Made by a program: the position numbers and the translations under genes. The notes under the pieces were generated by a model. That model saw only the letters and a program-made list of their open reading frames with translations, searched no databases and was not told the DNA's origin. Source: Chromatiaceae bacterium (GTDB lineage Bacteria > Pseudomonadota > Gammaproteobacteria > Chromatiales > Chromatiaceae). From it: a stretch of DNA of 64,000 bases. This document shows positions 8,273 through 34,013 of this stretch, piece by piece (the stretch's first letter is position 1; each line of letters starts with the position of its first letter). The stretch covers positions 811-64,810 of the forward strand of contig JALOTB010000024.1 of NCBI GenBank assembly GCA_025458165.1. Direction: 5' to 3'.

Positions 8273-8273
8273 C

Positions 8274-10403: not shown

Positions 10404-10407
10404 GGCC

Positions 10408-11082: not shown

Positions 11083-11088
11083 CCGCCG

Positions 11089-13005: not shown

Positions 13006-13102
13006 CCGTGATGCCCCTAACCGTGTCATTCAACCCTTGTCCGCGACCATGGATCGCGCCGCACGCGCGCCCTGCCGCGGGATACCGTTCAGAGGTGATG
13101 CG

Positions 13103-13501
13103 ATGACCAGCGTCGTGCCGTTGATCCAGAGCTGGCCGCTCGATGGGATCGATGCCAACGGCCGGCTGGCGGCCGCGCGCGACGACGAGAGCGTGCGCGA
13201 GGTGATGCTGAGCATCCTGCTGACACGCCCCGGCGAGCGGCTGATGCGCCCGCAGTTCGGCGCCGGCCTGCTGGATTTCGTCCACCAACCGAACAATCAG
13301 ACCACGCGCGCACTGATCGCCAATCTGGTCAAGAAGGCGATCGGGGAATGGGAGACCCGCGTCGTCGTGCTCGGCGTCGAGGTCTCGCCCGACCCGGATG
13401 ACCCGGCCGAGGTGCATATCGAGGTGCAGTATCGGCTGCGCCATGCAACGGTCCCGCAGGGCCTCGGCCTGAGCCTGAGGCTGGGTGCCGCCGGCCGCTG
13501 A
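13103..13501 (+). CDS. gp25/GPW-like baseplate wedge protein (Afp9-like)
   Basis: ESVREVMLSILLTRPGERLMRPQFGAGLLDFVHQPNN ... AIGEWETRV matches the GPW_gp25 family. The ATG at 13103 is preceded by agagg. Confidence 0.85.
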   Translation: MTSVVPLIQSWPLDGIDANGRLAAARDDESVREVMLSILLTRPGERLMRPQFGAGLLDFVHQPNNQTTRALIANLVKKAIGEWETRVVVLGVEVSPDPDDPAEVHIEVQYRLRHATVPQGLGLSLRLGAAGR

Positions 13502-13529
13502 ACGCCAACCCCCTCCCGGAGCGACCAAG

Positions 13530-18256: not shown

Positions 18257-18274
18257 CGCCGAGGGAGACCACCC

Positions 18275-19195
18275 ATGACCACCGCGACCGATACCGCAAC
18301 CTTGCGTGCCGATGCGGCGCTGGCGGAGCCGCTGCGGCGGGTCGCCTTCGAGGCCGGGATGCTGCTCGGGATCGAGGCGACCCGCGACGAGCAGGCCTAT
18401 CACCGCCGCCGCCTCACCCGCGGGCAATACTGGCTGCACGGGGCCGGGACCGTCGCCGGGCTACGGGTCGCGATCGAGCCGACCGCGCCCGCCGATGACG
18501 AACCGGCGGACACCGACATGCCGGTGCGCCTCACGGTCTCGCCGGGCGTCGGCATCGACGGCCTGGGCCGCGAGCTGCTGCTGACCGAGACCCACTGCTT
18601 GGATCTGCGCGCCTGGCTGCGGGCGCAGGATCGGCCCTGGCTGCTCGGCGGCTTCGACGACACGGCCGACCGGCTGCACCTCGGCGTCTTCGCCCGCCAC
18701 CAGGACTGCCCGGTCGGGCTGCAACCGGTGCTCGCACGCAAGCTCAACCTTGGCACCGACCCGGTGCAGCCGAGCCGCATCGCCGACGCGGTGGCGCTCG
18801 AGCTCGACCTGCTCGACCCGGCCGCCGCGCTCGAACGGCTCGGGCCCTGGCCGCTGCACGGTCCGTTGCAAGGCGCGGCGGCCGGTCCGCTGCCCGATCT
18901 CAGCGCCGAGGAACAGGCCGCGCTGGACGCGCTGCCCGCCGGCGCGGACGGCGAGCGCGCACGCCTCGAGCTCAGACTGCGCCTGTTGCACCTGTTCGAC
19001 ACCCCCTGGGCCGCACCGGCGCTCGCGGCCGACCTGCTGCGCTTGGTCCGGGTGCCGCTCGCCCGCCTGACGCTGCGCACCGCCGACCCGGCGACCGAGC
19101 TGGTCGTGAATCCCGGCCGGATCTCGATCGACAACCTCAGCCGCCCGTTCGTGCCGACCGCGGCGCAACTGGCGGCGCTCGCCCTCGCTGGCTGA
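18275..19195 (+). CDS. hypothetical protein, paralog family member A (shared N-terminal domain)
   Basis: 306 aa. The N-terminal block FEAGMLLGIEATRDEQAYHRRRL ... AGLRV ... VSPGVGIDGLGRELLL aligns with the N-termini of the next two ORFs. Confidence 0.6.
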   Translation: MTTATDTATLRADAALAEPLRRVAFEAGMLLGIEATRDEQAYHRRRLTRGQYWLHGAGTVAGLRVAIEPTAPADDEPADTDMPVRLTVSPGVGIDGLGRELLLTETHCLDLRAWLRAQDRPWLLGGFDDTADRLHLGVFARHQDCPVGLQPVLARKLNLGTDPVQPSRIADAVALELDLLDPAAALERLGPWPLHGPLQGAAAGPLPDLSAEEQAALDALPAGADGERARLELRLRLLHLFDTPWAAPALAADLLRLVRVPLARLTLRTADPATELVVNPGRISIDNLSRPFVPTAAQLAALALAG

Positions 19196-19235
19196 CGCGC
19201 ACCCCCGTGCCGAAACCCTCACCCCGGAGACCGCG

Positions 19236-21017
19236 ATGAGCACCATTCCCGGCTTCGCCCCGATCGGCAACCTCGCGCCGCCGATTCCGGGTCTCCCGGA
19301 TCAGGCGGATTTCAACCCGCTGCTGACCCGCACGCATTACTTCGACGGGCGGCTGCTCACCGCGGCGGACCTGACGCGCGAGCAGCTCTACCTCGACCAG
19401 CGCCTGCGCGAGGTCGGCGCCGCGCTCGGCAGCGGCGTCGTCCGCGGGCTCCGGGCACGTCTGGCCGGCGGACGCGTAACCATCGAGCCGGGGCTGGCGA
19501 TCACCGCCGCCGGACGGGTGCTGGAGCTGCGCGCGCCACTCACCGTCGACCTCAACAACCGCGCCAAGCTGGCCGGCCTCAACGACGGGCGTTTCGCCCA
19601 TCTACCCCACGGCCTGTTCGCCCTCATCCTGGGCTATGCGGAGCGCCCGAGCGGCGTCGCCGAGGTCTTCCCGCGCGACCTCAACGAGCGCACCGCGCAG
19701 CACGACGTCGACGAAGAGGGTGTGCAGGCGGCCCTGCTGCCACTGCCGGTGCCGCTGCCGGCCGCCGGCGAGCTGGCCCTGCGCGCGGGCCTGATGCGGC
19801 TCGCCAACGAGGGCACACTCGACGGGATCGGCCTGCCCGAGGACGCGGTCGCGCTCGGCGTGCTCGCGATCAGCGGTGACGCCGCGCGCTGGCTGGACCC
19901 CACGCTGTTGCGCCACCCGCCGCGCACGCTGCCGGTCAACGGCGAGCGCCAGGCCGATCTCAAGACCCAGTACGAGGCCCTGCTCGGCGACGTGCTCGCC
20001 GCCCGCCTGCCGCTCGACGGCGACTTCGCGGCGGGCGACTACTTCCGGGTGCTGCCACCGGCCGGCCTGGTGCCACGCGCCGCGTTCGATCCGGTGGCCG
20101 GCCGCCAGCGCTTCTTCCCGGCGCACTATCAAGTCTCGATCGCGCCGATCCGCCTCGCCGACCTCGACCTCGTCCAGCAGGAATCGCTGCGGCTGCCGCC
20201 GATCGACCTCGCCCGCGACGAGCCGGTGGAGGTCATCGTGCTGGTACCGCTGGCAGACCTGGCTTTCGGGCAGCTCACCGCACCGCTCGTGCGCGGCCCG
20301 GATGCGACGCCCGGCGCGGTGCCAAAGTCGCCGCCATTGCGCCTGCCGCACCTAGACCCCCTCAGCTTGCGCCTGTACCCCCTGCCGCCGGTGCACGCGC
20401 AGACCAGCGATCGCGACGCCTGGCAGGCGCTTTGGGAGGCCGTGACGGGCGATACGCTGGCCTTCGTGCGGCGGCCGACGCGCGTCGCGGAGACCGGCGT
20501 CAGCGCGATCCGCATCGCGGTCGGCGCCCCGAGCGAGCCGGCCGAGGAGGAGGCGCCGGGCACGGCCCTCCCCCCGCCGGGCGACCTGGTCGAGCTGGTG
20601 CTCGACGAGGACGCCCTCTTGCTCCGGCGCCTCGGGCTCGCACGGCTCGCCGAGCTGCGCGCCCCGCCCGACGACGTCGGACGCGCAGCGCTCGCGGAGC
20701 TGCGTGCCGACTTCGGCGGCGAGGCCGGGCTGGTGCTGGCGTCGGTCGAGTTAATGGCCCTGATCGAGCGACGCTTCGACCCGGTGCTCTGGCCGACGCT
20801 GCTCGCGACCGCCCGCGCCGGCACACTGACCAGCCTGCGCGACCGGCTGGTCGAGCGCCGCGCAGCCGAGACCGAGGACGCCGCGCAGGCCGTCGCGGAC
20901 GGCCAGTCCCCGCCGGCGCCGGCAGCGACCGACGCGCTCATCGACGAGCTTGCCGCGGCGCTCGGTCTGCCCGACACGCTGCGGCTGCGTTGGCGCGAGG
21001 TCGGCGCCGCGGCCTGA
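19236..21017 (+). CDS. hypothetical protein, paralog family member B
   Basis: 593 aa. The N-terminal block YFDGRLLTAADLTREQLYLDQRL ... RGLRA ... IEPGLAITAAGRVLEL is homologous to neighbours A and C. Confidence 0.6.
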   Translation: MSTIPGFAPIGNLAPPIPGLPDQADFNPLLTRTHYFDGRLLTAADLTREQLYLDQRLREVGAALGSGVVRGLRARLAGGRVTIEPGLAITAAGRVLELRAPLTVDLNNRAKLAGLNDGRFAHLPHGLFALILGYAERPSGVAEVFPRDLNERTAQHDVDEEGVQAALLPLPVPLPAAGELALRAGLMRLANEGTLDGIGLPEDAVALGVLAISGDAARWLDPTLLRHPPRTLPVNGERQADLKTQYEALLGDVLAARLPLDGDFAAGDYFRVLPPAGLVPRAAFDPVAGRQRFFPAHYQVSIAPIRLADLDLVQQESLRLPPIDLARDEPVEVIVLVPLADLAFGQLTAPLVRGPDATPGAVPKSPPLRLPHLDPLSLRLYPLPPVHAQTSDRDAWQALWEAVTGDTLAFVRRPTRVAETGVSAIRIAVGAPSEPAEEEAPGTALPPPGDLVELVLDEDALLLRRLGLARLAELRAPPDDVGRAALAELRADFGGEAGLVLASVELMALIERRFDPVLWPTLLATARAGTLTSLRDRLVERRAAETEDAAQAVADGQSPPAPAATDALIDELAAALGLPDTLRLRWREVGAAA

Positions 21018-21043
21018 AACAGCCCGCACCCGAGGCGACACCG

Positions 21044-24000
21044 ATGACGATGATCCGGCTCACCGCGCCCTTGGCGATGTCCGAGTTCCTGGCCCGCCCG
21101 CGGCTCTTCCCTGGCCGACACCTCGGCGAGGACGAGCTCGACCGGCTCCAGGCCTACGCCGATGCCCGCCTGGCGCCACTCACCGCGACCAGCCGGCCCG
21201 GCATCCTGACCGGGCTCGGCTGCCGCGCAGGCGACGCACCGGAGCGCCGCGGCGCGCGCGTGCTGGTCGAGCCGGGCCTGGCGGTGGCCGGGGACGGGCA
21301 GTTGGTCGGACTCTTCGTCGCCGCCCAGGCGACCTGGGCGGGCCTCGTCACGGCCTGGCTGCGCGAACAGCGCGCGAGCGACGCGGTCGGCGTGTACTAC
21401 CTGGTCCTCAAGCGCGGGCTGGGCGTCATCGACGCCGGCGCGGCCGTCGACCCCTGCCAGCGCGCCGAGCCGGACCCGCTGCGCGACCTGCGCCGCGAGG
21501 TGCTCGGCACGCTGGGCCTGCGGCGGCTCGCGGTCGACCCCGCGGGGCTCGCGGCCATGACCCCGGCCCAGGTGCAGAACCAGGTCGCGGCCCGGCACGT
21601 CGACGGCGCGTTCCTCGGCGGGCTCGGCGGCGCGGTGCCGCTCGCGCTGCTCGCGGTCTCGGTGCGCGCCGGCGGCCCCCCGCTCGCCGAGCTGGACCCG
21701 GCGCGGGTCGATCAGCGGTTTCAGGTGGACTGGTGCGAGCCCGCGGCGGGGCGCTACCTGGCGGTCCCGCACGCTGGGGCACGCGTGCTCTTCGAGCAGG
21801 TGCAGACGGCCTGGCGGGCGGCCGTCGAGCGCGCGCTGGCGGCGCGGCCGGCGGACGCTGCGCCGTTCGACCTCGCGGCGGCGCTGGAGTCGGGGCTCAG
21901 GCTCGACTTCCTGCCCGCCGCTGGCGCGCTGCCGCTCGCGCTGCTCGAGGCGGCCGACCAGCCGCGCCCGCGACTGCGTTGGCTGCCGCAACACCTGGCG
22001 GTCGACATGGTGCCGGTGCCGGAGGAGGCGGTCGCCGAGCTGATCGAGCGCGAGCTGCCGCGGCGGGTGCTCGACCTCCGCCGCCCGACCGGCGACCGCA
22101 TCCGGCTGCTGCTCGCGGTCAACGAGCCGGACTACCGGCCGGACCTGCTCGACTTCCCGGCCATCGACGCCGAGCTCGTCAAGGACCTCTACCGCACCCA
22201 CCTGCGCGCCTACCAGGCCTGGCGCGACTGGCGCATCGGCTTCGACGCGCTCTACGCCGTACAGGCCGCCGCGCTGCTCACGCCCGCCGAGGTCCGCGCC
22301 CTGGCGTTTCCCGCGGTGCTGCCGCAGCCGGTCCGCCCCGGGCAGTTCTACGCCGAGCTGATCCGTTCGGAAGGCGGCAAGCTGCCACTGGTCGAGGGCC
22401 GCCCACCGCACCCGTACGACGACGGGACCCCGCCGGCCCCGGCGTTCTATCACGCCTGGCTCGTCAACGGCGAGCCACCCGCAGTGCCGGCGCCGCAGGA
22501 CGACGGCCTGGTGGTGCGCTATCGCGCCACGCAGCTCGACCTGGAGCGGCTCGACCATCGCATCCGGGCACTTCGCGCACGGCTCGAGAAGCATCGCGAC
22601 TACCTGCTGCTGCAACGCCAGCAGCTCGACGCGCAGACCGTCTCGCTGGCCGCCCTCGGGGGCGGCGTGGCCGGAGACGGCAGCGGCCTGCAAATGGCTC
22701 GCTGGCTACCGTTCACCAAGCTGCGCGACAAGGCGGTGGCGGGCGAGGCCCCCGCCAGCGACGCAGACGCGCCGCAACCGCCGGCAGCGCCGAGCGCGGT
22801 CGGCCTGAGCGCGAGCCTGGCGGCGCCGAGCCTCCTCGCCGGCGTGTCGATCCGCGACCTGGGGCAGCCGCAGCCGTTCGCCAGCAAGGCGGTGCTCAAT
22901 CGGACTGCCGCCGTGAGCCTCGGCCGAGACGCACTGCGGCTGGCGGGACTCTCCACCGTCGAGGCCAACCTCAAGCGCGACCGCCTGAACAAGCTCGACG
23001 CGGTACCGAAGCGTCCCCTGACCACACCGGCGCTCGAAGGACGCAGCTACCAGTTCGGCGTGCTCGATCACATCCAGGCCGAGGTGCGCGAGTACGAGGC
23101 GACCTACCGCGGCATGCGCGACCTCATCGAGAGCCTCGATGGGCTGTTCGCCCCGGTCGAGGCGACCAGCATCCGCCGGGTACTGGAGGGATTCGGCGTC
23201 CCGGTGAGCCCGAACGCGCTGGCCGCCGAGCAGACCCCGAAGGCCTATCCGCTGGGTCGCCTCGACCTCGAGCGGATCGGCCGGCTGCTGGACGACGATC
23301 AGTTGCCTGCCGACGCACGAACGGCATTACGGACCGTCCGGGACCAGTATCAGACCTTCCTCGCCGCCCGTAGCCTGAGTAACGAGACGCTCGACGACTA
23401 CGCCACACCGGACCCCAAACGCCGGTTCGCGGCGCTCTTCGAGGCCGGGCAGATCCTCACCCGCCAGATCGCCTGGATGGAGGACCGCTATCAACGCCTG
23501 GAAGACCGGCTCGAAGGCCGACTGCGCGAGCGCATCCGCCTCGAAGGCGCGCTCGACCGCCTGGCCGCGGAGATCGAGTCGGCCGGGCGGAAGCTCGCGG
23601 TGCTCAACGCCAAGCGGCTGGAGTCGCTGAGCGACTACGGCATCGCTCAGGCCCTCACCCGCGAGGACTGGGACGCGGTCTACCGGCGCGACCAGGCACG
23701 CACGGAGATCCTCACCAAGCGCCTGCGCGGCCTGTACTACGTGCGGGTGCGGGAGACGCCGGTCAGCGCGTCGCTCGCCGCCAGGCTGCCGCTCACGCAC
23801 GGCAGCGCGCGCGACCCGGTCCCGGGCTGTGACTGGGATACCGAGGTCGATGTCCCACCGGCCCTCGCCGAGGTCTTCGCGACGGTGCTGGAGGTGCCGT
23901 TCGCGGATTGGCGGCCGCTCACGCCCCTGGTACCCAAGCTGCCCGTCGAGCGGCTGCCGGAGCTGCTCGGCCTGCACCGCTACCGCCTGACGCAGCGGCA

Positions 24001-24808
24001 GGCCGGCGGGCCGGCGGGCGCCCTGGCCGCGGGCCTCGCGGCGCGCCTCGCGCCGGTGCTCACGGCGAACGCCGCACTCCTCCAAGACTGGTCCGCCAGC
24101 GCCCCCTCCGGCGCCGATGCACGCAACCGCTACCTGGCGGAGACCGCCCGAGTGCTGTCGCTGGCGGATGCGCTCGGGCTCACGGGACCGCTGCAGCGTG
24201 AGGTGCAGACGCTTCATGACCGCCTTGAGCAATGCGTGGTCTGCCTCATGGACCGGCTCGGCCGGGTCACGCCGTCGCTGCGCTTCGCCTGGGGCCAACT
24301 CGCCGAGGACGACCGGCTGCCGACCGACGAGCCCGCGCGCTGGCCGGGGCTCGAACGCGCCGAGGCCGCGGACTTCACGGCGGTCCGCACCATCGCCGAG
24401 CTGATCGCCTGGTGGTTCCGGCAGCTCGCCGATGACGCCAGTGGGGCCGGGCGTGCGGCGCTGCGCAACCTGATCCGCGCCGCCGTCATCGTCGCCGCTC
24501 ACGGGGACCCCGGCCGGGTACTGGAGGGTCGGGTCGCGGTCCCGCCCCGGCGCCTGGCGGTCGGGGAGGCGATGCGCCTTGCGCTGCCGGGCTCGCCACC
24601 GGCCGGCACCCGGCTGCAACTGCTCGACGACAGCCAGCGCGTCGTCGGTCTGATCGCCGTCAAGGATCACGACCAGGGCGGCATCCTGGCGCAGGTCGTG
24701 CGGGTCGACGCGGCAGTCGCGGAGGTCACCACGCGCTTCACGGTTGTCTCCGCGGCACTGTCTGCCGAGGCATCGCCCACGCTCGCCGCCAAGGCGGGGC
24801 GACGCTGA
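21044..24808 (+). CDS. hypothetical large protein, paralog family member C, with coiled-coil-like segments
   Basis: 1254 aa from the ATG at 21044 (gagg upstream, 26 nt after the previous stop). The N-terminal block is LFPGRHLGEDELDRLQAYADARL ... TGLGC ... VEPGLAVAGDGQLVGL. There are long heptad-like Arg/Leu/Glu stretches. The upstream ORF extension to 20432 is Arg-rich and was judged spurious. Confidence 0.6.
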   Translation: MTMIRLTAPLAMSEFLARPRLFPGRHLGEDELDRLQAYADARLAPLTATSRPGILTGLGCRAGDAPERRGARVLVEPGLAVAGDGQLVGLFVAAQATWAGLVTAWLREQRASDAVGVYYLVLKRGLGVIDAGAAVDPCQRAEPDPLRDLRREVLGTLGLRRLAVDPAGLAAMTPAQVQNQVAARHVDGAFLGGLGGAVPLALLAVSVRAGGPPLAELDPARVDQRFQVDWCEPAAGRYLAVPHAGARVLFEQVQTAWRAAVERALAARPADAAPFDLAAALESGLRLDFLPAAGALPLALLEAADQPRPRLRWLPQHLAVDMVPVPEEAVAELIERELPRRVLDLRRPTGDRIRLLLAVNEPDYRPDLLDFPAIDAELVKDLYRTHLRAYQAWRDWRIGFDALYAVQAAALLTPAEVRALAFPAVLPQPVRPGQFYAELIRSEGGKLPLVEGRPPHPYDDGTPPAPAFYHAWLVNGEPPAVPAPQDDGLVVRYRATQLDLERLDHRIRALRARLEKHRDYLLLQRQQLDAQTVSLAALGGGVAGDGSGLQMARWLPFTKLRDKAVAGEAPASDADAPQPPAAPSAVGLSASLAAPSLLAGVSIRDLGQPQPFASKAVLNRTAAVSLGRDALRLAGLSTVEANLKRDRLNKLDAVPKRPLTTPALEGRSYQFGVLDHIQAEVREYEATYRGMRDLIESLDGLFAPVEATSIRRVLEGFGVPVSPNALAAEQTPKAYPLGRLDLERIGRLLDDDQLPADARTALRTVRDQYQTFLAARSLSNETLDDYATPDPKRRFAALFEAGQILTRQIAWMEDRYQRLEDRLEGRLRERIRLEGALDRLAAEIESAGRKLAVLNAKRLESLSDYGIAQALTREDWDAVYRRDQARTEILTKRLRGLYYVRVRETPVSASLAARLPLTHGSARDPVPGCDWDTEVDVPPALAEVFATVLEVPFADWRPLTPLVPKLPVERLPELLGLHRYRLTQRQAGGPAGALAAGLAARLAPVLTANAALLQDWSASAPSGADARNRYLAETARVLSLADALGLTGPLQREVQTLHDRLEQCVVCLMDRLGRVTPSLRFAWGQLAEDDRLPTDEPARWPGLERAEAADFTAVRTIAELIAWWFRQLADDASGAGRAALRNLIRAAVIVAAHGDPGRVLEGRVAVPPRRLAVGEAMRLALPGSPPAGTRLQLLDDSQRVVGLIAVKDHDQGGILAQVVRVDAAVAEVTTRFTVVSAALSAEASPTLAAKAGRR

Positions 24809-24948
24809 GTGCCGGAGCGGGGGCGATGGGCGCGCCCACCGACAGGCTCGGGAGCGATCAGGGTAAGCCGCTCCGGCCGACGATCACGCCTCGCATCGGG
24901 GTTGTTCGGCCATCGTTCGTGGCCAGTCGCCCCTGCTCGGGCTGAACC

Positions 24949-26751
24949 ATGCACCCGCCGCCGGCACCCGATCTCCCCGCCGACGCCGTCGCGATCCGGC
25001 GGCTGCGGGTGCGTGCCGCGGCCGCCGCCGGCGCTTCGGCGACGGACCGTCAGGTCCGTCGGGCACTGACCGAGACGAACTGGCCGCGACCCGCCGGCGA
25101 GGCCTGGGTGCTGCTGCGGTCCGTCACAGCACAAGCCCGGACGCCGACCGGCATAGGCGCGGCGGCGGCGCGCGCGGTCGCGGCTCAGATCGCCGCTGCG
25201 GTGGACCTCGGCGATCCGGCCGCCGCGCAGTCCGACGCGGTCTGTGCGCGCGATCGCGACCTGCTGATCGCGTATCTGGCGCGCGACCTGGCCCTCGGCC
25301 AGGCCAGGTCGCGCTGGTACTGGCGCCCCTGGGCCGCGCTGCTCGCCCTGCCGGCCGCGACGGCGCTGCGCGACCTCCTGGCCGGGCAACCGGCGCGGCT
25401 CGCCGCGGTCACCGGCGGGCTTGCGGCGCTCGGGGCGCTCGCGCCCGTCTGGCAGGCGCTGACGGCCGACGCCGCCGACGACCTGCTCGCCCGGGTCGCG
25501 CATGCGCTCGGGCTGCACCTCCCCGCCGCGCCGACCACGGCGGACGTGACGGCCCCGGACGACACCCCGGCGGTCCCCCTGGCCCTGGTCGAGCGCTGGC
25601 GCCCGGCGCTCGCCGGTCTGCCCGAGACCGACGCGCGGACGCGGCTGGCCGTCCTGCTGATGACACTCGAATGGCGACCGCTCTGGCTGACCGCTGACAC
25701 CGCAGTCGCCTCGACCGCGCGACGGCTCGCGGCGGTTGCGGCGGATCTGCGCGGCGCCCCGCGCCCGGCGGGCGCGCTGCCGCCGGGGCGAGTCCCAGGC
25801 ACGGAGCGGACGCTGGCACCGCCAGCGGCGACTGGGCCCCTGTCCAACCCGCCCGCGCGGTGGACATCCGACCCCTCGCCGACAACGGCCGCGCCGGCTG
25901 CGCTGTCCCCGCCGGCCCGGCCGGTCGGGCTGGGGCCGGGGTCGCCCGCCGCTCCCGAGCGCGTTCCCAGCCCCCCGGCCGCGGGTGCGCCGCCCCCCGC
26001 GACCCCAGACCCTGAGCAGGACGGCGGGGACGCGACCGGCAGCGGCGTGCCGCCCACCGCGGCCGGGGCCGACCAGCGCCCCTCCCCGACCCTGGTACCG
26101 ACGCCGCTCCCACCCACGACGGTCCCGCGCCACTCGGACCTCGACCGGCTGCGGGTTCGCGACAGCGGGGCCGCGCCGGCGCCCCACCCGACCGCGACGC
26201 CGGCGGCGGCACCCGGTCCGGCCGGGTCGGCGGCCCGGTCAACGCCCGTCCCCGCGCTTTACACCGGCGAGGGCGGCCTGTTCTACCTGATCAACTTTCT
26301 GGCCCGCCCCGAGGCCCAGGCGCTGCTCGCCGCGCGGGCGAGCCGGACTGACGCCGACGGCTGGGTCTGGCTCTACGGGCTCGGTCGGCGACTGGGGCTC
26401 GACCCGGCCGGGGCGCTCGCGGCCTTTCTCGCCGATCAACGCCGCGCCCCCTGGCCGCAGGACGCCGACACCGATGCCCTGCTCGACCGCCTCGCCGACC
26501 TCGGCGCCCGACTTTACGGCGGGGCGGACGCGTCCGACGACGGGGCGCGCGACCTGTGGGGACCCAGCCTGCTCGCGGTCCCGGCGCTGGTCGAAGCCGG
26601 TCCGAGCCACCTGGACATCCGCTACCCGCTCACCGGGGTGCGGCTCGCGGTGCGCCGCGTCGCGCTCGACGTGAGCCCCGGCTGGGTGCCCTGGCTCGGA
26701 CGGCTGATCCGCCTGCACTACGTCGACCCCTGGCCCGGCCCGCCGCGATGA
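24949..26751 (+). CDS. hypothetical Pro/Ala-rich protein (positional candidate for an Afp14-like tape measure or assembly factor)
   Basis: 600-aa ORF. An in-frame TGA immediately upstream fixes the start. The stop overlaps the ATPase start (ATGA). The central region is very Pro/Ala-rich. The C-terminal ~170 aa look globular (GGLFYLINFLARPEAQ ...). Confidence 0.5.
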   Translation: MHPPPAPDLPADAVAIRRLRVRAAAAAGASATDRQVRRALTETNWPRPAGEAWVLLRSVTAQARTPTGIGAAAARAVAAQIAAAVDLGDPAAAQSDAVCARDRDLLIAYLARDLALGQARSRWYWRPWAALLALPAATALRDLLAGQPARLAAVTGGLAALGALAPVWQALTADAADDLLARVAHALGLHLPAAPTTADVTAPDDTPAVPLALVERWRPALAGLPETDARTRLAVLLMTLEWRPLWLTADTAVASTARRLAAVAADLRGAPRPAGALPPGRVPGTERTLAPPAATGPLSNPPARWTSDPSPTTAAPAALSPPARPVGLGPGSPAAPERVPSPPAAGAPPPATPDPEQDGGDATGSGVPPTAAGADQRPSPTLVPTPLPPTTVPRHSDLDRLRVRDSGAAPAPHPTATPAAAPGPAGSAARSTPVPALYTGEGGLFYLINFLARPEAQALLAARASRTDADGWVWLYGLGRRLGLDPAGALAAFLADQRRAPWPQDADTDALLDRLADLGARLYGGADASDDGARDLWGPSLLAVPALVEAGPSHLDIRYPLTGVRLAVRRVALDVSPGWVPWLGRLIRLHYVDPWPGPPR

Positions 26752-28757
26752 GCCCGCCCCGCCAGCCGCCCGGAACCCGCGCCTGGGTCGCGGCCCTGGT
26801 GCACCACGGGGTCGCCGCCTTTGCGGCCGACACCCTCGGCGCCGACGACCCGCTCCTCGCCGCCCTGCGCGCAGAGACCCTGATCCACGGCGCCGCCGCC
26901 CTGCCCGGCGACTGGCCGGACCTGATCGAGGCGCTGGCAGCGGCCTGGCCGCTGACCGAGGGCCGGCTGGGGGCACTGCTCGCCGACTACCAACTGACGC
27001 CGGCCGAGCTCTTCGTCCTCGGCCTGGCCGGCACGGTGGAAGAGTCCCACCTGCTCGGGTTGGTGCTGGCGCGCCTCCAGGCACCGGCGGCACAGTCGCG
27101 TCCGACCCTTCACCTGACCCTAGCCCTGACCGCTGCCCTGTTCGGCCCCGAGGCCCGCTCCCTGCAGGGGCTACTGGCGCACCCGTTGCTGCGCGTCGGA
27201 GCGCTGCGGGTGGACGGCGACGGCCCGCTCCCGCTCGCGACGCTGGGCGTGCCACCCCCGCTCTGGGCGGTGTTGAGCGGGACCGCAACACCCTGGCCCG
27301 GCTGCGCACCCATCCTGAGGCCGGTCCCGGGGCTGCTACCGCGGGCGCTCGATCGCGAGCTGCCGAAGCTTGCGGCGTTGCTCGGAGGGAGCGATGCAGA
27401 CACGGCGACCGAGTGCGCCGGGCTGGTCCTGCGCGGCACCCCCGGCAGCGGGCGCGCGGCCGTCGCCGCGCTGCTCGCCGCGCGCCTGGGGCGCGTCGCT
27501 CTGGCGGTGCCGGTCGCCCTTTGGGAGCAGGAGCCCGCCCTCGCCGTCGCCTGCCGTTACGCCGGCTGGCTGCCGGTGCTGCGCCCGACGCTGCGCCCCG
27601 GCGAGCTCTGGCCGCTACCGGGACAAGCCGCGGCGGCACCCTCCGTCGTCGTCCTGGTGGGTATGGACGGCGCGGTGGGGGGGGCCGGGCTGGTGGAGCT
27701 CGACCTGCCGCCGCTGCCCGAGCCCGAGCGCCGCATCCTCTGGCAGGCGCGCCTCGGCGACCCCGAGCTGGCCGCCGTCGCCGCCCACGCCCTGCTCGCC
27801 GGTCCGGTGATCGAGGCCCTCGCCGGCCGCGCGCGGCTACTCGCGGCACGAGCCGGGCGGACGGTGTCGCTTGGGGATGTCGCCGATGCCCGTGCCCTGC
27901 TTGGCGCCGAACGGCTGCGATTGCTGGCGCAGCCGGTCGCGCGGCGGGTCGGCGCCGACGCCCTGGTGCTGCCGCCAGGGCTGACCGCGGACCTCGACGT
28001 GGTACTGCGCCGCTGCCGCCGCCGCGAGGCGCTCTGGCGGGGCCTGGGCGCGACACTCACGGCCACTGCGAGCCCAGGCGTGCGCGTGCTGTTGGTCGGC
28101 GAAAGCGGCACCGGCAAGACGCTCGCGGCGAGCTATCTCGCCACCGCGCTCGGCGCGCCCCTGTACCGGGTGGACCTGGCCGCGGTGATGAACAAGTACA
28201 TCGGCGAGTCCGAGAAGAACCTGGGCGCGCTATTGGACGAGGCCGCCGCGCACGACGTGGTGCTCCTGTTCGACGAGGCCGACTCCCTGTTCGGGCGACG
28301 CTCGGAGCGCAAGGAGACCGGCGAGCGCTACGCCAACATGCTGACCAACTTCCTCCTGACCCGCATCGAGAACCACCCCGGCCTGGTGGTGCTGACCAGC
28401 AACAGCCGCGAGCGCATCGACCCCGCCTTCAACCGCCGATTGGATCTGATCCTGGAGGTGCCACTGCCGGGCTTCGAGGAGCGCCGGCGCCTCTGGGCCA
28501 GCCACCTCGGCACCCGCGCCCCGGCAGAGACGCTCTGCCGGACGCTGGCCGCCCACTGCGAGCTCGCGGGCGGGGCGATCCGCAACATCGTACTCACCGC
28601 GGCCACGCTCACCGCGGCCGACGATGGCCCGCTGGACACCGCCGCACTGCTCATGGCGCTGCGGCTGGAGTACCGCAAGGCCGGTCGAGCGCCGCCGGCC
28701 GCGCTCGAGCGCCTGGCCACGGCGAGTGACGCCCCGCCGGGCAGGACCCCCGAATGA
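26748..28757 (+). CDS. AAA+ ATPase (Afp15/Pvc15-like)
   Basis: Walker A is VLLVGESGTGKTLAASYLA. YIGESEKNL is present. Walker B is VVLLFDEADSLFGRRS. LLTRIENHPGLVVLTSN and a sensor region follow. The start is at the ATGA overlap with the upstream gene. Confidence 0.88.
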   Translation: MSPPRQPPGTRAWVAALVHHGVAAFAADTLGADDPLLAALRAETLIHGAAALPGDWPDLIEALAAAWPLTEGRLGALLADYQLTPAELFVLGLAGTVEESHLLGLVLARLQAPAAQSRPTLHLTLALTAALFGPEARSLQGLLAHPLLRVGALRVDGDGPLPLATLGVPPPLWAVLSGTATPWPGCAPILRPVPGLLPRALDRELPKLAALLGGSDADTATECAGLVLRGTPGSGRAAVAALLAARLGRVALAVPVALWEQEPALAVACRYAGWLPVLRPTLRPGELWPLPGQAAAAPSVVVLVGMDGAVGGAGLVELDLPPLPEPERRILWQARLGDPELAAVAAHALLAGPVIEALAGRARLLAARAGRTVSLGDVADARALLGAERLRLLAQPVARRVGADALVLPPGLTADLDVVLRRCRRREALWRGLGATLTATASPGVRVLLVGESGTGKTLAASYLATALGAPLYRVDLAAVMNKYIGESEKNLGALLDEAAAHDVVLLFDEADSLFGRRSERKETGERYANMLTNFLLTRIENHPGLVVLTSNSRERIDPAFNRRLDLILEVPLPGFEERRRLWASHLGTRAPAETLCRTLAAHCELAGGAIRNIVLTAATLTAADDGPLDTAALLMALRLEYRKAGRAPPAALERLATASDAPPGRTPE

Positions 28758-31700
28758 GCCAGGCCGCCGCAATCAGCGTCAGCTCCCAGCCGGCGGCGGG
28801 CAAGGCGCGCGCGGCCCCTGCGCCCCCGGCGGCCGCCCCGATTGCCCCGGCCGTGCTGGCGGTACCGGCCTATCTCCAGGCCCGCTTCAAGACGCAGGCG
28901 CTGGTCCAACGCGCCCCGGCCGCCGAGCCCACAACGGTCGAGGACGAGGAGGTCCTGCCGGCCGGACCTGGGCTGCAGACCAAGATCGCGATCGGCCCGC
29001 CCGATGACCCCTATGAGCAGGCGGCGGATGCGCTCGCCGATCGGGTGCAGCGCGCCGCCGCCCCGGCGCCGGCGGTCCAGCGGGCGCCGCTGCCGGACGA
29101 GGCGTCATTGCCCATCCGGCGGATGGCACGGCCGGACGAGGACGAGCCCTTGCCGGTGCAACGGAAGGCTGGCGCACCCTGCCCGACCTGCGCGGCGGCC
29201 GGGGATCGTCTGCAGGCGAAGCCGGCTGGCAACGGCCCCGGGCCGGCAGCCACCGCGCCCGGACCGCAGGCCGGTCGCGCGCTGCACCGGGCGCTCGCGC
29301 AACCCGGCCCGGGTGCGCCCCTCTCCCCAACGGTGCGCGGGCGGGTCGAGCCGGCGCTCGGGGCTGACCTTGGCGCGGTTCGGGTCCACGCCGACGCCGG
29401 CGCCGCCGCCACCCGCGCGATTCAGGCACGCGCCTTCACCCATGGCCAGGACATCTGGCTCGGCGCCGGCGAGAGCCCGAACGACCTCGGCCTGATGGCC
29501 CACGAGGCGACCCACGTCGTCCAGCAGACCGGGCGGGTCCAGCGCAAGCCAGCCAACAACGGCGCCGCTGGCGGCGCCCCGGCGCGGGCCGGTGGTGCCG
29601 GTGCTGCGGGTGGTGCCGGTGGCGCGGCTGGCGCTGCCGCGGGTGTCAACGCCCAGACGGGTGGAGGCACGGGCGCCGGCGGCGGTGCGACCGCTGCCCA
29701 GCCGGCTTCGGCTGCCGGTGCTGTTACTCCAGCCGGCGCGGGCCTGGCAGCTCCTGCGGCCGGGGGGGCTGGCACCGGCCCGACGCTGTTGATGCCAGAA
29801 CCGCCGGCGGGGCTTTCGGCGGAAGAACAGGCGCGCATCGCCGAGGCCCAGGGCCAGGCCTCGGCGGCCGCCGAGGCCAATGCGGCGATGCCGCCGGCCG
29901 ATGCGGCGGTGGCCGATGCGCGAGCCGCGGTCGACGAGCCCGAGGCCGAGACCGCGGCCCGCGCGGCCGGTGAGCTCACCGCGACCCTCGGCGAGCGCGC
30001 CGCGCCCAGCCCCGAGATCGAGGAGCTTTGCGAGCGCATCAAAGGCGCCATCCGACGCCGCCGCCCGCCAGACGAAGACGCACTGGCCCAGTTCGACCCA
30101 GGCGAGGCGACCCAGGCCGCGGGTGCCGAGCTCAACAGTGCCGTCGAGGGCGACGCCGAGCGTGTCCAGGGCGACTACGACCAGTTAAACGAGACGCCAG
30201 AGGGCAGCCCCGAGCAGCAGGCGCAGCCCTTGGAGACCCCACCGGGGGCCGTCGAGACCCGGCCCGTCGAGGCAAGCCAGGCCGTTCCCGACGCGGTGCC
30301 GGCCGCAGACCTCTCGCTCGATGCCGATGTCGCCGCGAGCAGCCAACGCATCGAAGACGCCGGCATGGCCACCGCGCCCGCGGAGCTGATCACCGACCCG
30401 TCCAACCCCGTCACCCAGGCCCGCGAGGGGCAGACCGGGCTGGCCGAGGCGGCCGCGCGTGACCCGGTCGAGGTAATGGCCGAGCAGACCGCGATCCGCG
30501 ATCAGGCCCAGGGCGCCATGCGCACACTGCAGCAGCAGGCCCTGAACGCACTGCAGGCGTCGCGCGCGGCGACTGCGAGCGGGGTCGGCAGCGGCATGGT
30601 GAGCCTGGGTGACACCGAGGAGCAGATGCGCGCCAACGCGGGCGCCGAGGCCCAGCGCATCTTCAGCGAGGCGCAGACCCAGGTCAGCAGCCTCCTCGAT
30701 CCGCTGCCGCAGACCGCGATGCAACGCTGGGAGACCGGCATCCGCGTCCTCTCCACCCGGGTCGAGCAGGAGTCCGAGGAATTCAACCGGTGGAAGGCCG
30801 AGCGCTATTCGGGCGTCGGCGGCGCCGTCCTTGGCGTCGTCGAAGGCGTCGTCGGCATGCCCGACTGGGCCATCCGCTGGCTCAACGGCATCGAGGAGCG
30901 CTTCGGCAACGATGTCTGCGATCTGGTCCGCGAGATCTCCTCGGAGGTCAACACGGTCGTCGCGACCTGCGAAGAGATCATCGACAACGCCAACCGGCAG
31001 ATCGCAGCGGTCTTCGCGCAACTCCCGACCAGCCTCCAGGATTGGGCCGCCGGCGAGCAGGCCAACTTCAGCGCGCAACTGGAGGGGTTGCGCGAACGGG
31101 CCCACAACACCCGCAACGACTTCAATCAGCAGCTCTCCCAACAGGCCGCCCAGGCCGTTCAAGAGGTGCGTGAGCGCATCCACGCGATGCGCGAGGAAGC
31201 CCAGGGGCTGCTCGGGCAGATCGCCAATGCCATCGAGCGCTTCGCCGAGGACCCGGCCAAGTTCATCATCGAGGGGCTGCTCAAGCTCGTCGGGATCGCC
31301 GCATCGGCCTTCTGGGCCTTGGTCAACCGCATCGGTCAGGTCATCGAGGACATCGCCGATGACCCGATGAACTTCGCCAACAACCTGGTGCGGGCCATCG
31401 GCCAGGGCTTCCAGCGCTTCTTCGACAACTTCGCCAACCACATTGTCAGCGGTTTCTTCGACTGGCTGTTCTCGGGCCTGGGCTCGGTCGGCGTGCAATT
31501 GCCGACCGACTTCTCCCTCGGCAGCTTGATCACCTTCTTCCTGCAATTGATGGGGATCACCTGGGCGCGGATTCGCCAGATCCTTGCACGACACATCGGC
31601 GAGCAGAATGTCGCCCTATTGGAGAAGGCCTATGAGCTGATCGCCCTGCTGATGGAGCGCGGGGTCGATGGCATTTACGAGATGATCCGCGAGCAGTTGA

Positions 31701-32971
31701 ATCCGCAGACCATCCTGGATGCGATCCTGAGCGCGGCGGTGGACTTCCTGATCGACGCGCTGATCCGTGCCGTCACGCCGCGGATCATCGGGCTGTTCAA
31801 CCCGGCCGGCGCGATCATCCAGGCGATTGAGGTCATCTACCGCGTCCTGGCCTGGATCTTCAACAACGCCGCACGCATCTTTAGTCTGGTCGAGACCGTC
31901 GTCAACGGCGCGGCAGACCTGATCGCCGGCAACGTCGGCGGCATGGCCACCGCCATCGAGGGCGCGCTGGCACGGCTCATCGCCCCGGTGATCGACTTCC
32001 TCGCCGGCTTCCTCGGCCTCGGCAACCTCCCGGATCGCATCGCCGACACCATCCGCGGCTTCCAGCAAATGGTCCTCGCCGCAATCGAGCGGGTGGTCGC
32101 CTTCCTGGCCGAGCGGGCAAGGGCGTTGTTGCGGACGTTAGGGATTGGTGGCGGCGGGGAAGACGACACTGAGGACGAGCTCGAAGGCGTCCAGGCTTTG
32201 GCGAGCAGTGCAGTCCGAAGCCGGCTAGCCGCTGGTGCTGACGAAGCGGAGGCGCGTGGCATCCTGCGGCAGATCGAGAATGACCTTCGCCCGAACGGCC
32301 TGAAAAGTCTGGAGCTGGGCACAGCGGATGCCCACGGCAACATACCCATCTTCGCTGAGGCGAGCCCCAAGAAGCTCGTCAACAAGCTCGTTGACAAGAA
32401 CGTGACCGTCGCTCTGCACGCGACCATTACGATGCATGAAGAAGAAGACCTCATTCCCGCTGGTATAGCCAACGAGGGCGAGTCGCTGAGCTTCCGCTTC
32501 AGTGAACTAGCGGCCGGTGGTCGTCGACTCGGTGACGATCCGAGCGCTACAGAGCGCCGACAGATATTTCACGGTCTTGGCGGCACAGGCCGGGAAACGC
32601 CGCTTCCGGCGGTCTCGCAGCAGGCGCGCGGTCGGGGATGGCAGCCGTCTGCTGGGCTTATTCTGGAACCGCGCCCAGGGGCTCCATTGACCGTGTTGTC
32701 GTGGAATACCAGTCAGCCCAAGGGGAGCGATAATGTATCCCACGCGGAGACCCAGTTTTTGGAATGGTTCGATCACCGCCCGCTGGCCTGGCGTAGGAGA
32801 GTTAGCCGCGTGCAGGTCGTTGTTGAGGGGCGACCGATTTGCGACCGTTGTCTGGGCTTTCTACAGGCTTCAAAGGCAAGATTTCTTAGTCTTCCGACCC
32901 CACCGTCACGGTCATTCGATTGGCGGGGACCGTCATCTGAGGAAGGCGACGACAAAGTTTTGGAGCGATGA
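28754..32971 (+). CDS. DUF4157 (HExxH) domain-containing polymorphic toxin or effector with a C-terminal deaminase-like module
   Basis: The N-terminus is of DUF4157 type (LQTKIAIGPPDDPYEQAADALADRV ... VRVHADAGAAATRAIQARAFTHGQDIWLGAG ... MAHEATHVVQQ; HEATH at nt 29501-15). A Gly/Ala linker and a conserved helical middle region follow. The C-terminus carries HAE (32741-49) and PICDRC (32834-51). The start overlaps the ATPase stop (ATGA). Confidence 0.85.
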   Translation: MSQAAAISVSSQPAAGKARAAPAPPAAAPIAPAVLAVPAYLQARFKTQALVQRAPAAEPTTVEDEEVLPAGPGLQTKIAIGPPDDPYEQAADALADRVQRAAAPAPAVQRAPLPDEASLPIRRMARPDEDEPLPVQRKAGAPCPTCAAAGDRLQAKPAGNGPGPAATAPGPQAGRALHRALAQPGPGAPLSPTVRGRVEPALGADLGAVRVHADAGAAATRAIQARAFTHGQDIWLGAGESPNDLGLMAHEATHVVQQTGRVQRKPANNGAAGGAPARAGGAGAAGGAGGAAGAAAGVNAQTGGGTGAGGGATAAQPASAAGAVTPAGAGLAAPAAGGAGTGPTLLMPEPPAGLSAEEQARIAEAQGQASAAAEANAAMPPADAAVADARAAVDEPEAETAARAAGELTATLGERAAPSPEIEELCERIKGAIRRRRPPDEDALAQFDPGEATQAAGAELNSAVEGDAERVQGDYDQLNETPEGSPEQQAQPLETPPGAVETRPVEASQAVPDAVPAADLSLDADVAASSQRIEDAGMATAPAELITDPSNPVTQAREGQTGLAEAAARDPVEVMAEQTAIRDQAQGAMRTLQQQALNALQASRAATASGVGSGMVSLGDTEEQMRANAGAEAQRIFSEAQTQVSSLLDPLPQTAMQRWETGIRVLSTRVEQESEEFNRWKAERYSGVGGAVLGVVEGVVGMPDWAIRWLNGIEERFGNDVCDLVREISSEVNTVVATCEEIIDNANRQIAAVFAQLPTSLQDWAAGEQANFSAQLEGLRERAHNTRNDFNQQLSQQAAQAVQEVRERIHAMREEAQGLLGQIANAIERFAEDPAKFIIEGLLKLVGIAASAFWALVNRIGQVIEDIADDPMNFANNLVRAIGQGFQRFFDNFANHIVSGFFDWLFSGLGSVGVQLPTDFSLGSLITFFLQLMGITWARIRQILARHIGEQNVALLEKAYELIALLMERGVDGIYEMIREQLNPQTILDAILSAAVDFLIDALIRAVTPRIIGLFNPAGAIIQAIEVIYRVLAWIFNNAARIFSLVETVVNGAADLIAGNVGGMATAIEGALARLIAPVIDFLAGFLGLGNLPDRIADTIRGFQQMVLAAIERVVAFLAERARALLRTLGIGGGGEDDTEDELEGVQALASSAVRSRLAAGADEAEARGILRQIENDLRPNGLKSLELGTADAHGNIPIFAEASPKKLVNKLVDKNVTVALHATITMHEEEDLIPAGIANEGESLSFRFSELAAGGRRLGDDPSATERRQIFHGLGGTGRETPLPAVSQQARGRGWQPSAGLILEPRPGAPLTVLSWNTSQPKGSDNVSHAETQFLEWFDHRPLAWRRRVSRVQVVVEGRPICDRCLGFLQASKARFLSLPTPPSRSFDWRGPSSEEGDDKVLER

Positions 32972-32978: not shown

Positions 32979-34013
32979 ATGAACAAATCCGGTATGCCTC
33001 CGTCTACATTGTGGTCGGACGAGCATCGCAAGCGCCTGTTTCTGATCCCGGAAGGCATTGAGTTACCTATCGGCGAGCTACGCTTGCGAACATCGGGAGG
33101 CCGTGACCGGTGGGTGCAACCTTCCACCGTTGCGCCTTACCAGGTTAGTGCAGACGTCGCATGCGCCTGGGCGCAGGCCGAGTTATCGAGCGTATCTCGC
33201 CAACTCGGCGGCAACCCGCGCCGCTCGTTCCCATCGGTACCGGCGCCCGAGCAGCCGGGGAATGCCTCAGCGGACGCCCCGGCGACCCCCGGCCTCGACC
33301 TCCTCGCCGCAATCACCGGCACCCCGCGGGCTGACCTGGACACCGGTGCGCTCGGCGCGGCACTGAAGCGCTATTTCGGTGACATCGGAGGCACCATCGC
33401 CGATGCCGTGAGCGGCGAGCCAGCGCGCATCGCGAGGGCCAAGGTGCGGATGGCCGAGTGGTCCGCGATTCTGCGTGCGCATGGCACGGAGGTCGGGGAG
33501 GCTGCGCCGGCGGGGACCCCATCGGGGCGAGTACCGACGAGCGAACCGGGGGCGCCCGAGCCGGCGGCGGGGGGCACGGCCACAGAGTCCGACTCGGGGC
33601 GGCCAGTCGGCGAAGTGGGCGGGTTGGCCGAGCGCCTGCATGCGCTGGCCGAGGACTTCCGGCGCCGCGCTGATGCGCTGGCCGCCGCACGCGAGACCCG
33701 CCCAGGCGCCGCCGCGACACCGGAGACCCGGTGCGCCGACAAATCCAGCGCCTCGGGAGTCGGTCAGCCGGCGGCCGCCGTCAGACTCGATCGGGCCGCC
33801 ACCGAGGCGCAAGCAACCGGTGAGCCATCCGAGGCGAGTGGGACAACGGGGTCGGCCGATGGTCCTGCGGCGACGGGCCAGCCGGAGTCTCCCTCCCACG
33901 GCTATACCCAGGCGGCCGCACTCGAGGCCCTGGCCGAGGGGCTCGAAGACGCGGCAACCGATGCCGCGGCCCGTCTGCGCGCGTATGCGGAAACACTCCG
34001 AGATCGCTCGTGA
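32979..34013 (+). CDS. hypothetical protein; candidate immunity or partner protein of the upstream toxin module
   Basis: 344-aa ORF starting 8 nt after the toxin stop. The first ~150 nt are markedly lower in GC. The rest of the protein is Ala/Pro/Glu/Gly-rich. No family was recognised. Confidence 0.45.
   Translation: MNKSGMPPSTLWSDEHRKRLFLIPEGIELPIGELRLRTSGGRDRWVQPSTVAPYQVSADVACAWAQAELSSVSRQLGGNPRRSFPSVPAPEQPGNASADAPATPGLDLLAAITGTPRADLDTGALGAALKRYFGDIGGTIADAVSGEPARIARAKVRMAEWSAILRAHGTEVGEAAPAGTPSGRVPTSEPGAPEPAAGGTATESDSGRPVGEVGGLAERLHALAEDFRRRADALAAARETRPGAAATPETRCADKSSASGVGQPAAAVRLDRAATEAQATGEPSEASGTTGSADGPAATGQPESPSHGYTQAAALEALAEGLEDAATDAAARLRAYAETLRDRS

Follow-up and report, generated by a model that had tools for sequence, protein, structure and literature searches.

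A DUF4157 effector with a deaminase-like C-terminal module in the contractile injection locus of a Chromatiaceae bacterium

Deaminase toxins delivered by Photorhabdus virulence cassettes (PVCs) were described by Iyer et al. in 2011 as proteins with an N-terminal PVC metallopeptidase, a domain now named DUF4157, and without immunity genes; in the same work, bacterial AID/APOBEC-like homologues came only from a Wolbachia phage and from Pseudomonas brassicacearum, in SpvB/RHS contexts (PMC3239186). DUF4157 was then reported as a core marker of extracellular contractile injection systems (eCIS) by Geller et al. in 2021, together with EAT11, a DUF4157-deaminase protein that kills Escherichia coli and yeast, and with domain tables that place YwqJ, XOO_2897 and DYW deaminases in eCIS loci (PMC8213781). 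Two effectors of actinobacterial systems complete this picture: Tme (BN159_7576) from Streptomyces davawensis, which ends in an EndA-like nuclease and co-purifies with spike and tube-initiator proteins (Nagakubo et al., Nat Commun 2024, PMC11126660), and RS14790 from Micromonospora eburnea, a Sle1-type effector that ends in a cytidine-deaminase-like domain, is toxic in E. coli and has its immunity protein, RS14785, encoded downstream (J Bacteriol 2026, PMC13277306). Here, we compare with these systems an open reading frame (ORF) of 1405 residues found in a stretch of 64,000 nucleotides (hereafter the window, always meant at its full length) from the Chromatiaceae bacterium assembly GCA_025458165.1, contig JALOTB010000024.1. 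An earlier sequence-only reading of the window had described this ORF as a DUF4157 effector ending in a deaminase-signature toxin module.

Taking all lines of evidence together, we propose, with a probability of about 0.72, that this ORF encodes a polymorphic, tape-measure-related PVC/eCIS cargo, the exchangeable C-terminus of which is a zinc-dependent nucleic-acid deaminase belonging to a family closest to AID/APOBEC.

The effector and its deaminase-like module

The effector ORF runs from 28754 to 32971 on the forward strand, and its extent is the one given by the sequence-only reading. Its ATG (28754) overlaps the TGA (28755-28757) of the preceding ORF, forming an ATGA, and an AGGA is found 9 nucleotides (nt) 5' of this ATG. 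The preceding ORF (26556..28757, +) encodes a 733-residue AAA+ ATPase of the contractile injection system (Pfam PF00004, E=5.4e-27), and the structural genes of this system lie 5' of it (1641..26751, +), as delineated by Pfam scans and by a map of ORFs and of GC content at third codon positions (GC3). The structural set comprises a Pvc16_N cap, a sheath, two gp19 tubes, CIS_tube, a gpD hub, gp25, Baseplate_J and Tail_P2_I, all matched above threshold except Baseplate_J, which is marginal (20.3 bits versus 21.1). The reading of a DUF4157 effector next to an injection-system ATPase, first made from the letters alone, is supported by Pfam for both the operon and the ATPase. The effector gene closes a full PVC/eCIS-type contractile injection gene set at its 3' end, where it is the penultimate gene of the operon, a 344-residue ORF coming last, and its product is one of the two largest of the cluster. 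The GC3 of the gene is 0.82, the GC content of the window being 70.7%. Two public assemblies call an identical 1405-residue product, one from NCBI (GCA_025491015.1, contig JAOQIA010000267.1) and one from Logan.

Along the protein, a DUF4157 domain is followed by a Gly/Ala linker, a tape-measure-like trunk, a pre-toxin segment and the deaminase-like module. The first of these, the ‘PVC metallopeptidase’ domain now listed as eCIS_core (PF13699, formerly DUF4157), covers residues 189-260 (29318..29533, +) with a score of 72.7 bits for a cutoff of 22 (E=2.8e-20), and its HExxH motif is present as HEATH (residues 250-254, nt 29501-29515). The low-complexity linker, expected to be about 90 residues long at about 29540-29800, was recovered from translation and composition as a Gly/Ala-rich stretch at residues 263-345 (29540..29788, +), Ala and Gly making up approximately half of the blocks within residues 201-400. 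At the other end of the protein, the deaminase-like toxin module occupies residues 1274-1405 (32573..32968, +), its predicted strands and helices spanning residues 1301-1391. It contains H1330-A-E1332 (nt 32741-32749) and, with 28 residues between E1332 and P1361, the motif PICDRC (residues 1361-1366, nt 32834-32851), in which C1363 (nt 32840-32842) and C1366 (nt 32849-32851) are two of the seven Cys of the whole protein. All the landmarks listed by the sequence-only reading, i.e. the ORF, its overlap with the ATPase stop codon, HEATH, HAE and PICDRC, are found at the positions it had given, and its identification of the N-terminal domain and of the linker holds as well. Among 20,000 shuffles of the effector protein, an H-x-E followed 20-40 residues on by a C-x-x-C occurred in 0.06%, and the stricter H-[AV]-E version of the pattern in 0.015%.

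Taken as a single sequence, the last 205-230 residues gave no match in Pfam or in the PDB. Profiles built from homologues were more informative. Indeed, a 4-sequence profile already matched APOBEC3C (E=0.0017), and the top 18 matches of a 46-sequence profile, searched against all PDB sequences, were all APOBEC3 proteins (E=2.9e-7 to 8.6e-5), APOBEC3G (2.9e-7) and APOBEC3C (4.5e-7) among them. APOBEC2, A3H, AID, ADAT2/TadA, dCMP deaminase and CDA followed at lower ranks, with a few non-deaminase chains interspersed. In these alignments, HAE falls over HAE and PCxxC over PCxxC, and the similarity continues through helix 4 and strand 5. A Pfam scan of the 46 members pointed in the same direction, with matches to SNAD4 in 38, to APOBEC_N in 37 (best E=9.4e-11), to NAD1 in 33 and to OTT_1508_deam in 15 (best E=1.5e-5). 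Several relatives exceed the gathering thresholds of the AID/APOBEC clan, among them P0004, which is 36% identical to the window module (APOBEC_N: 32.2 bits versus 25; NAD1: 31.5 versus 27), as well as P0087, P0124, P0156 and P0068.

The family itself was delineated by an exhaustive search of 1.84 billion cluster representatives with a 9-sequence profile, which retrieved 154 clusters at E<=1e-10, a number rising to 349 when the limit was relaxed to E<=1e-3. The first homologue search had returned three metagenomic proteins, having SHAExQFxEW and CxxC in common, and word-indexed searches stayed shallow, with 3 and 7 matches, and 2 when the alignment of 46 sequences served as query; the family became visible only once the representatives were searched exhaustively. 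In nearly all full-length members (about 900-1500 residues), the module lies within a few residues of the C-terminus. The catalytic residues are invariant across the 154-sequence alignment (H 154/154, E 154/154, and each of the two Cys 153/153), the Ala between His and Glu being kept in 151 of 154, and the family consensus reads N-x-S-H-A-E-x-Q-F-x-x-W ... S-P-C-x-x-C.

Two subtypes are apparent within this family. The long one, with 93 representatives, is recognised by S-P-C and by a tail reading W..LY....TT..L..L..GW.v.GP; its members keep the segment from strand 4 to helix 4, helix 4 and strand 5, and end 0-20 residues later. The short one (35 representatives, the window included) has G-R-x-I-C and ends 10-25 residues past the strand that follows the CxxC helix. 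Short-subtype members, including that of the window, give sub-threshold matches only, nearly all of them to deaminase families (OTT_1508_deam, Deam_C, SNAD4). Nevertheless, a hidden Markov model (HMM) built from only the 93 long-subtype sequences retrieves the window module with 85.4 bits (E=4.3e-19 in a search space of 1.8 billion sequences). Together with the family profile, this match supports the placement in the deaminase superfamily that the sequence-only reading had put forward. Moreover, the N, S, H, A, E, Q, C and C of the consensus are all 100% conserved in the 35 short-subtype clusters, the identity of which to the window module is 35-55%; such strict conservation at this level of identity argues for a maintained active site.

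A few members of the family depart from the usual layout. In P0092 (2703 residues) and P0142 (2573 residues), the deaminase module lies in mid-protein (approx. residues 1300-1450) and is followed by about 1200 residues; these could be fused tandem effectors, poly-toxins or the result of read-through in the gene call. P0009 (142 residues) is chimeric: its last 58 residues or so are identical to the tail of the deaminase P0003, and its N-terminal 85 residues or so presumably resemble a fragment of a REP/IS200-type transposase, which suggests the insertion of a mobile element into a deaminase gene.

As to the predicted structure, an AlphaFold model of the module computed from 9 sequences was poor, with a predicted local distance difference test (pLDDT) score of 60.7, and gave no significant match in Foldseek. 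With 46 sequences, the pLDDT rose to 88.1, for a predicted template modelling (pTM) score of 0.78. This second model consists of two strands, a helix started by HAE, a short helix, a strand, a helix started by CxxC, a further strand and a disordered tail, an order in which the model follows the deaminase core as far as strand 4. H1330-A-E1332 is placed in the first turn of a predicted helix and C1363-D-R-C1366 starts the next long one, with one strand in between.

The trunk, its exchangeable C-termini and related loci

The region between linker and toxin had been described by the sequence-only reading as a long helical region. It amounts to more than a linker: residues 697-1112 (30842..32089, +) match PHROGs families annotated as ‘tail length tape measure protein’ (phrog_5493, E=3.1e-8; phrog_1272, E=9.3e-7; phrog_167, E=3.4e-5), and none of the other ORFs of the cluster matches a tape-measure family of PHROGs. 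A coiled coil is indicated there solely by sub-threshold matches to Apolipoprotein (residues 739-832) and Filament. Hydropathy windows of at least 1.5 occur at about residues 837-857, 986-1036 and 1070-1093, and residues 801-1100 are 36-45% hydrophobic. Combining the hydropathy scan with tblastn, we delimited a conserved hydrophobic helical trunk at residues 860-1180 (31331..32293, +), which tblastn finds again in 11 related genome loci, with E-values between 1e-37 and 1e-47.

Scanning metagenomes with residues 1001-1180 of this trunk yielded five loci (L019-L023) that are 60-78% identical to the window in that region. Four of them (L019, L020, L022 and L023) have readable C-termini, each different from the others and none like the deaminase (0/4 match the deaminase HMM). 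The C-terminus of L023 is a DNA/RNA non-specific endonuclease (PF13930, Endonuclea_NS_2; 32.3 bits versus 27), and the C-terminal modules of L019, L020 and L022 have no Pfam match. The effector gene of L023 lies at 1706-5713 of this locus, on metagenome contig Ga0316202_10000893, and its trunk is 74% identical to residues 1001-1128 of the window protein. The junction between trunk and cassette falls at about residues 1150-1180, near GIGGGGEDD, and the cassette of the window protein thereby extends over about residues 1180-1405. Its first part is a pre-toxin segment with a conserved AEASP motif (residues 1181-1273, 32294..32572, +; defined by alignment and tblastn). Among the related loci, tblastn finds this segment together with the deaminase in the closest relatives alone (L001 and L004-L007). 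The association of one and the same trunk with unrelated C-termini is the signature of polymorphic toxins and, judged from its sequence, the effector can be classed as a Tme-like polymorphic effector.

A scan of genomes with the deaminase motif of the 9-sequence alignment yielded 15 loci, in Thermoanaerobaculia (Acidobacteriota), Dechloromonas, Arenimonas, an alphaproteobacterium, Bacteroidota (Gelatiniphilus and Algibacter), Actinoplanes, Propionicimonas and the haloarchaeon Salinigranum; Amycolatopsis was not recovered by the pattern used. Most loci with enough flanking sequence carry the module on a DUF4157 ORF, and an AAA ATPase, sheath or tube gene is near in eight. The conserved hydrophobic trunk is common to ten of the deaminase loci. 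Complete effector ORFs in related loci measure 881-1404 residues, several others being cut by contig ends or shorter. The ATPase adjoins the effector in L004, L006, L012 and L015-L018; it is located 5' of the effector in proteobacterial and acidobacterial loci and 3' in Bacteroidota, and the Actinoplanes effector is divergent from the sheath gene. The family crosses the boundary between bacteria and archaea, as shown by Salinigranum sp. (L008:7781-10426, NZ_JBHTAO010000001.1), in which an 881-residue DUF4157 protein ends in a short-subtype module 47% identical to that of the window. In a Bacteroidota locus (L011:10475-12798) and in Propionicimonas (L013:3553-5490), the gene following the effector starts like another DUF4157-type effector, with a motif E-R-E-A-D-x-x-A in the former, which suggests tandem effector arrays.

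Proposed function and rival explanations

The domain order allows a working scheme to be drawn. By analogy with homologues, for which these roles were shown or proposed, the zincin-like DUF4157 domain would anchor the effector at the spike/baseplate complex and might, in addition, process the protein. The helical and hydrophobic trunk, resembling a tape measure, would be loaded in the lumen of the tube and expelled on contraction, possibly aiding passage through a membrane, and the cassette from about residue 1180 to the end would act as the toxin. Within this cassette, H1330, C1363 and C1366 would bind zinc and E1332 would shuttle the proton, the most likely reaction being the deamination of cytosine into uracil on the recipient's single-stranded DNA (or RNA), from which mutagenesis and toxicity would follow.

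Several observations weigh against this proposal, most of them concerning the window module itself. The latter passes no Pfam threshold, its best score, from its only match to a Pfam deaminase model, being 12.8 bits for OTT_1508_deam against a cutoff of 27. The resemblance to AID/APOBEC-like enzymes noticed by the sequence-only reading thus stands at the level of the family, in which the top 18 PDB matches are APOBEC3 and relatives pass APOBEC_N and NAD1, but not for the window protein alone. Like 36 of the 153 members aligned at this site, the window module has an Ile in the column of the canonical Pro before the first Cys. The Pro located one residue earlier is present in only 11 of 153 and is not conserved, so that the motif first written P-x-C-x-x-C has to be read in the alignment as I-C-x-x-C, a variant of P-C-x-x-C. 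In addition, the module ends about 14 residues past predicted strand 4, and helix 4 and strand 5 are consequently missing from what is canonically a three-layer alpha/beta/alpha core with a five-stranded sheet (order 2-1-3-4-5). The PDB profile search also matched the CxxC heavy-metal-associated (HMA) domains of copper ATPases (E=2.4e-4 to 4.4e-4), probably through a local similarity of the strand-CxxC-helix type. Foldseek, run with the model of pLDDT 88.1, found nothing significant in the PDB or in BFVD, the best E-values being 0.25 and 0.4, respectively, with no deaminase near the top of the matches. The structural comparison by AlphaFold and Foldseek that had been suggested at the outset did not, therefore, confirm a deaminase, and on the predicted model the deaminase fold of the window module is not structurally confirmed. 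Since no alternative fold was significant either, we read this outcome as an absence of confirmation rather than as a sign of another fold; the silence of Foldseek is likely due to the window module being only about two-thirds of the canonical core. Beyond the module, the gene lies 3' of the ATPase, in the last part of its cluster, whereas tme is immediately 5' of the baseplate genes, and no conserved immunity gene was found when one was sought across the related loci, a situation that fits the remark of Iyer et al. on PVC-linked deaminase toxins (PMC3239186).

These observations feed two explanations in which the module would not be an active deaminase. That HAE and CxxC form a chance or convergent metal site in another fold, such as a ferredoxin-like domain of HMA type, would agree with the lack of any deaminase match by Foldseek and with the copper-ATPase HMA domains reached at E=2.4e-4 by the PDB profile. 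However, the APOBEC matches are about 1000-fold better and are aligned over a stretch that starts ahead of HAE, takes in CxxC and reaches strand 5, relatives pass the curated AID/APOBEC thresholds of Pfam, the motif arises in a tiny fraction of shuffles only (the 0.06% given above), and HMA domains do not have the HxE; we regard such a coincidence as very improbable. Somewhat less remote, but still quite improbable in our view, is a genuine deaminase remnant that is catalytically dead, i.e. a relic or a binding domain at the end of a protein acting mainly as a tape measure or tube plug. The missing helix 4 and strand 5, the replacement of Pro by Ile, the absence of a structural match and the fact that no other ORF of the cluster matches a tape-measure family could all be accounted for in this way. 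In contrast, the retention of N, S, H, A, E, Q, C and C in 35 of 35 short-subtype clusters is what would be expected of an active site under selection, and the same trunk bears other enzymatic toxins in relatives.

Two other explanations accept an active enzyme and differ on what it acts upon. The fold could be that of a genuine deaminase with RNA or tRNA, adenine or free nucleotides as substrate, toxicity then resulting from RNA editing or from damage to the nucleotide pool: the PDB profile also reaches ADAT2/TadA, dCMP deaminase and CDA, albeit weakly (E=0.04-0.5), and the sub-threshold matches of the short subtype are to OTT_1508_deam and Deam_C, not to the APOBEC families. Yet the best and most consistent similarity is to the APOBEC3 proteins, which edit single-stranded DNA, and deaminases of free nucleotides are not typical toxin cargo, which leaves a non-DNA substrate rather unlikely. 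A less unlikely rival, although still clearly a minority option, is that the effector acts, in the manner of Tme and of the cytoplasmic contractile systems of Streptomyces, inside the producer cell, where it would cause self-directed genotoxic stress, death or developmental signalling without any attack on other cells. Indeed, the colony in which Tme-like DUF4157 effectors act is that of the producer itself (PMC11126660), sporulation changed its timing when Sle1 was fused to a deaminase-like domain (PMC13277306), and no conserved immunity gene was found here, just as none was noted for the PVC-linked deaminase toxins of Iyer et al. Set against this are the Pvc16-type cap and the full PVC/eCIS-like gene set of the locus, along with the killing of E. 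coli and yeast on expression of EAT11, which is compatible with an exported toxin. On balance, an injected nucleic-acid deaminase directed at a recipient cell remains the explanation that we prefer.

A more speculative extension of this preferred reading, and one that we consider doubtful, is that the short subtype represents a natural minimum (approx. 110-130 residues, four strands) for a polynucleotide cytosine deaminase of the AID/APOBEC-like kind, still active although helix 4 and strand 5 are missing, and that the family, confined to effectors of contractile injection systems in many bacterial phyla and in a haloarchaeon, stands closest among prokaryotes to the eukaryotic AID/APOBEC enzymes, of which it is a possible source. 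Should the truncated short subtype be active, its size would be unusually small for a nucleic-acid deaminase, a property of practical value to base editing; if the minimal-deaminase reading were true, the family would lend base editors a compact scaffold and studies of the origin of AID/APOBEC a point of entry. In any case, the locus offers a concrete test of the delivery of mutators by contractile systems.

The rest of the locus and comparison with known systems

The last gene of the operon, the 344-residue ORF (32979..34013, +), starts 8 nt 3' of the effector and is called in both public assemblies. It combines a plausibly structured N-terminal region of about 70 residues with a low-complexity tail rich in Ala, Gly, Pro and Glu, and has no match in Pfam or PHROGs. 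Its residues 9-69 are 44% identical to the ORF located 3' of the P0005 deaminase (L001). The other 14 loci yielded no counterpart, and their genes 3' of the effector differ. The 344-residue ORF is a possible candidate for a partner or immunity protein. Around the 3' end of the effector gene, neither promoter-like nor terminator-like sites were detected.

Other genes of the region lie further away. Between Tail_P2_I and the ATPase (19236-26751, +), there are three or four large ORFs with overlapping starts (593 residues, about 1260-1458 residues and 600 residues), without any Pfam or PHROG match, which by their position are presumably tail-fibre or target-recognition proteins. A 594-residue ORF with high GC3 (5968-7752, +) occupies an unusual place between the two gp19 tube genes and matches no family. 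Just 5' of the injection operon (290-853, +) is the C-terminal part of a sigma-54-type activator (AAA_lid_14 and Fis-type HTH_8), a possible regulator of this operon. On the other side, the end of the locus is marked by a 1029-residue fusion of MFS_1, acyltransferase and AMP-binding domains (34780-37869, -), resembling a lysophospholipid transporter joined to an Aas-type enzyme.

Regarding the enzymatic module, the known deaminase clades provide two points of comparison. AID/APOBEC proteins (APOBEC3C/F/G/B) and the present family have in common S/H-A-E-x-x-F-x-x-W and S-P-C-x-x-C with the same spacing, and the long-subtype relatives also resemble them in the extended segment from strand 4 to helix 4, in helix 4 and in strand 5. 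The present family, however, is bacterial and archaeal and fused to an injection trunk, and it lacks throughout the two additional helices located at the C-terminus of the AID/APOBEC clade (Iyer 2011; Krishnan 2018), the tail of 0-20 residues in the long subtype leaving no room for them. A filing in the AID/APOBEC clade proper was rejected, the two helices being defining for the clade and the window module being, moreover, devoid of helix 4 and strand 5. The OTT_1508-like clade resembles the window effector in its PVC delivery context, its N-terminal metallopeptidase-like domain, its helix-4 division and the apparent lack of an associated immunity gene. It differs by a listed GxxK before CxxC, which is absent in the window, where the sequence reads V-V-E-G-R-P-I, and the family is closer to AID/APOBEC models (38/46 versus 15/46). 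The gathering score of PF14441 (OTT_1508) is reached neither by the window module (12.8 versus 27) nor by the best family member (25.3 bits); on account of this score and of the missing GxxK, a filing under the OTT_1508-like clade was likewise rejected. No dedicated model for the deaminase family exists in the Pfam libraries scanned.

Deaminase toxins are also carried by other machineries. DddA (Mok et al. 2020) and SsdA (de Moraes et al. 2021) are reportedly delivered by the type VI secretion system, mutagenic to recipients and exploited as base editors. They belong to other deaminase clades (SCP1.201-like and others, of the C-terminal hairpin division), have other delivery domains and are accompanied by dedicated immunity proteins.

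Closer parallels are found among the effectors of contractile injection systems. By description, EAT11 (AmyniDRAFT_7433, Amycolatopsis nigrescens) is like the window effector in having an N-terminal DUF4157, a predicted deaminase and an eCIS locus, and RS14790 is like it, again by description, in resembling a tape measure and in ending in a deaminase-like toxin that can be swapped. In Sle1-type effectors, DUF4157 is borne by a partner protein and an immunity protein is demonstrated, whereas in the window DUF4157 is part of the same polypeptide and no immunity protein is established. The sequence-only reading had considered a deaminase carried by a contractile particle as an unusual cargo; given the reports of 2011 (PMC3239186), 2021 (PMC8213781) and 2026, this does not hold, and a DUF4157 injection protein ending in a deaminase toxin is an established design. 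Conversely, we did not find the present family described in the literature: it is AID/APOBEC-like by Pfam thresholds, is almost always found here on DUF4157 effectors, with injection genes close by wherever the flanks were long enough to tell, and includes a truncated, strongly conserved short subtype.

The closest likeness in overall architecture is to Tme. Both proteins have an N-terminal DUF4157, disordered or coiled regions, hydrophobic helices, remote tape-measure homology and a C-terminal nucleic-acid toxin, and both are among the largest ORFs of their clusters. They differ in size (>2200 residues for Tme versus 1405) and in the toxin itself, an EndA-like nuclease in one and a deaminase-like module in the other. 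A Tme-type DNA/RNA non-specific endonuclease is, however, carried by L023, the trunk of which is a close relative of that of the window. A polymorphic trunk that swaps deaminase, nuclease and other C-termini thereby connects Gram-negative and archaeal systems with the concept that Tme introduced in Streptomyces.

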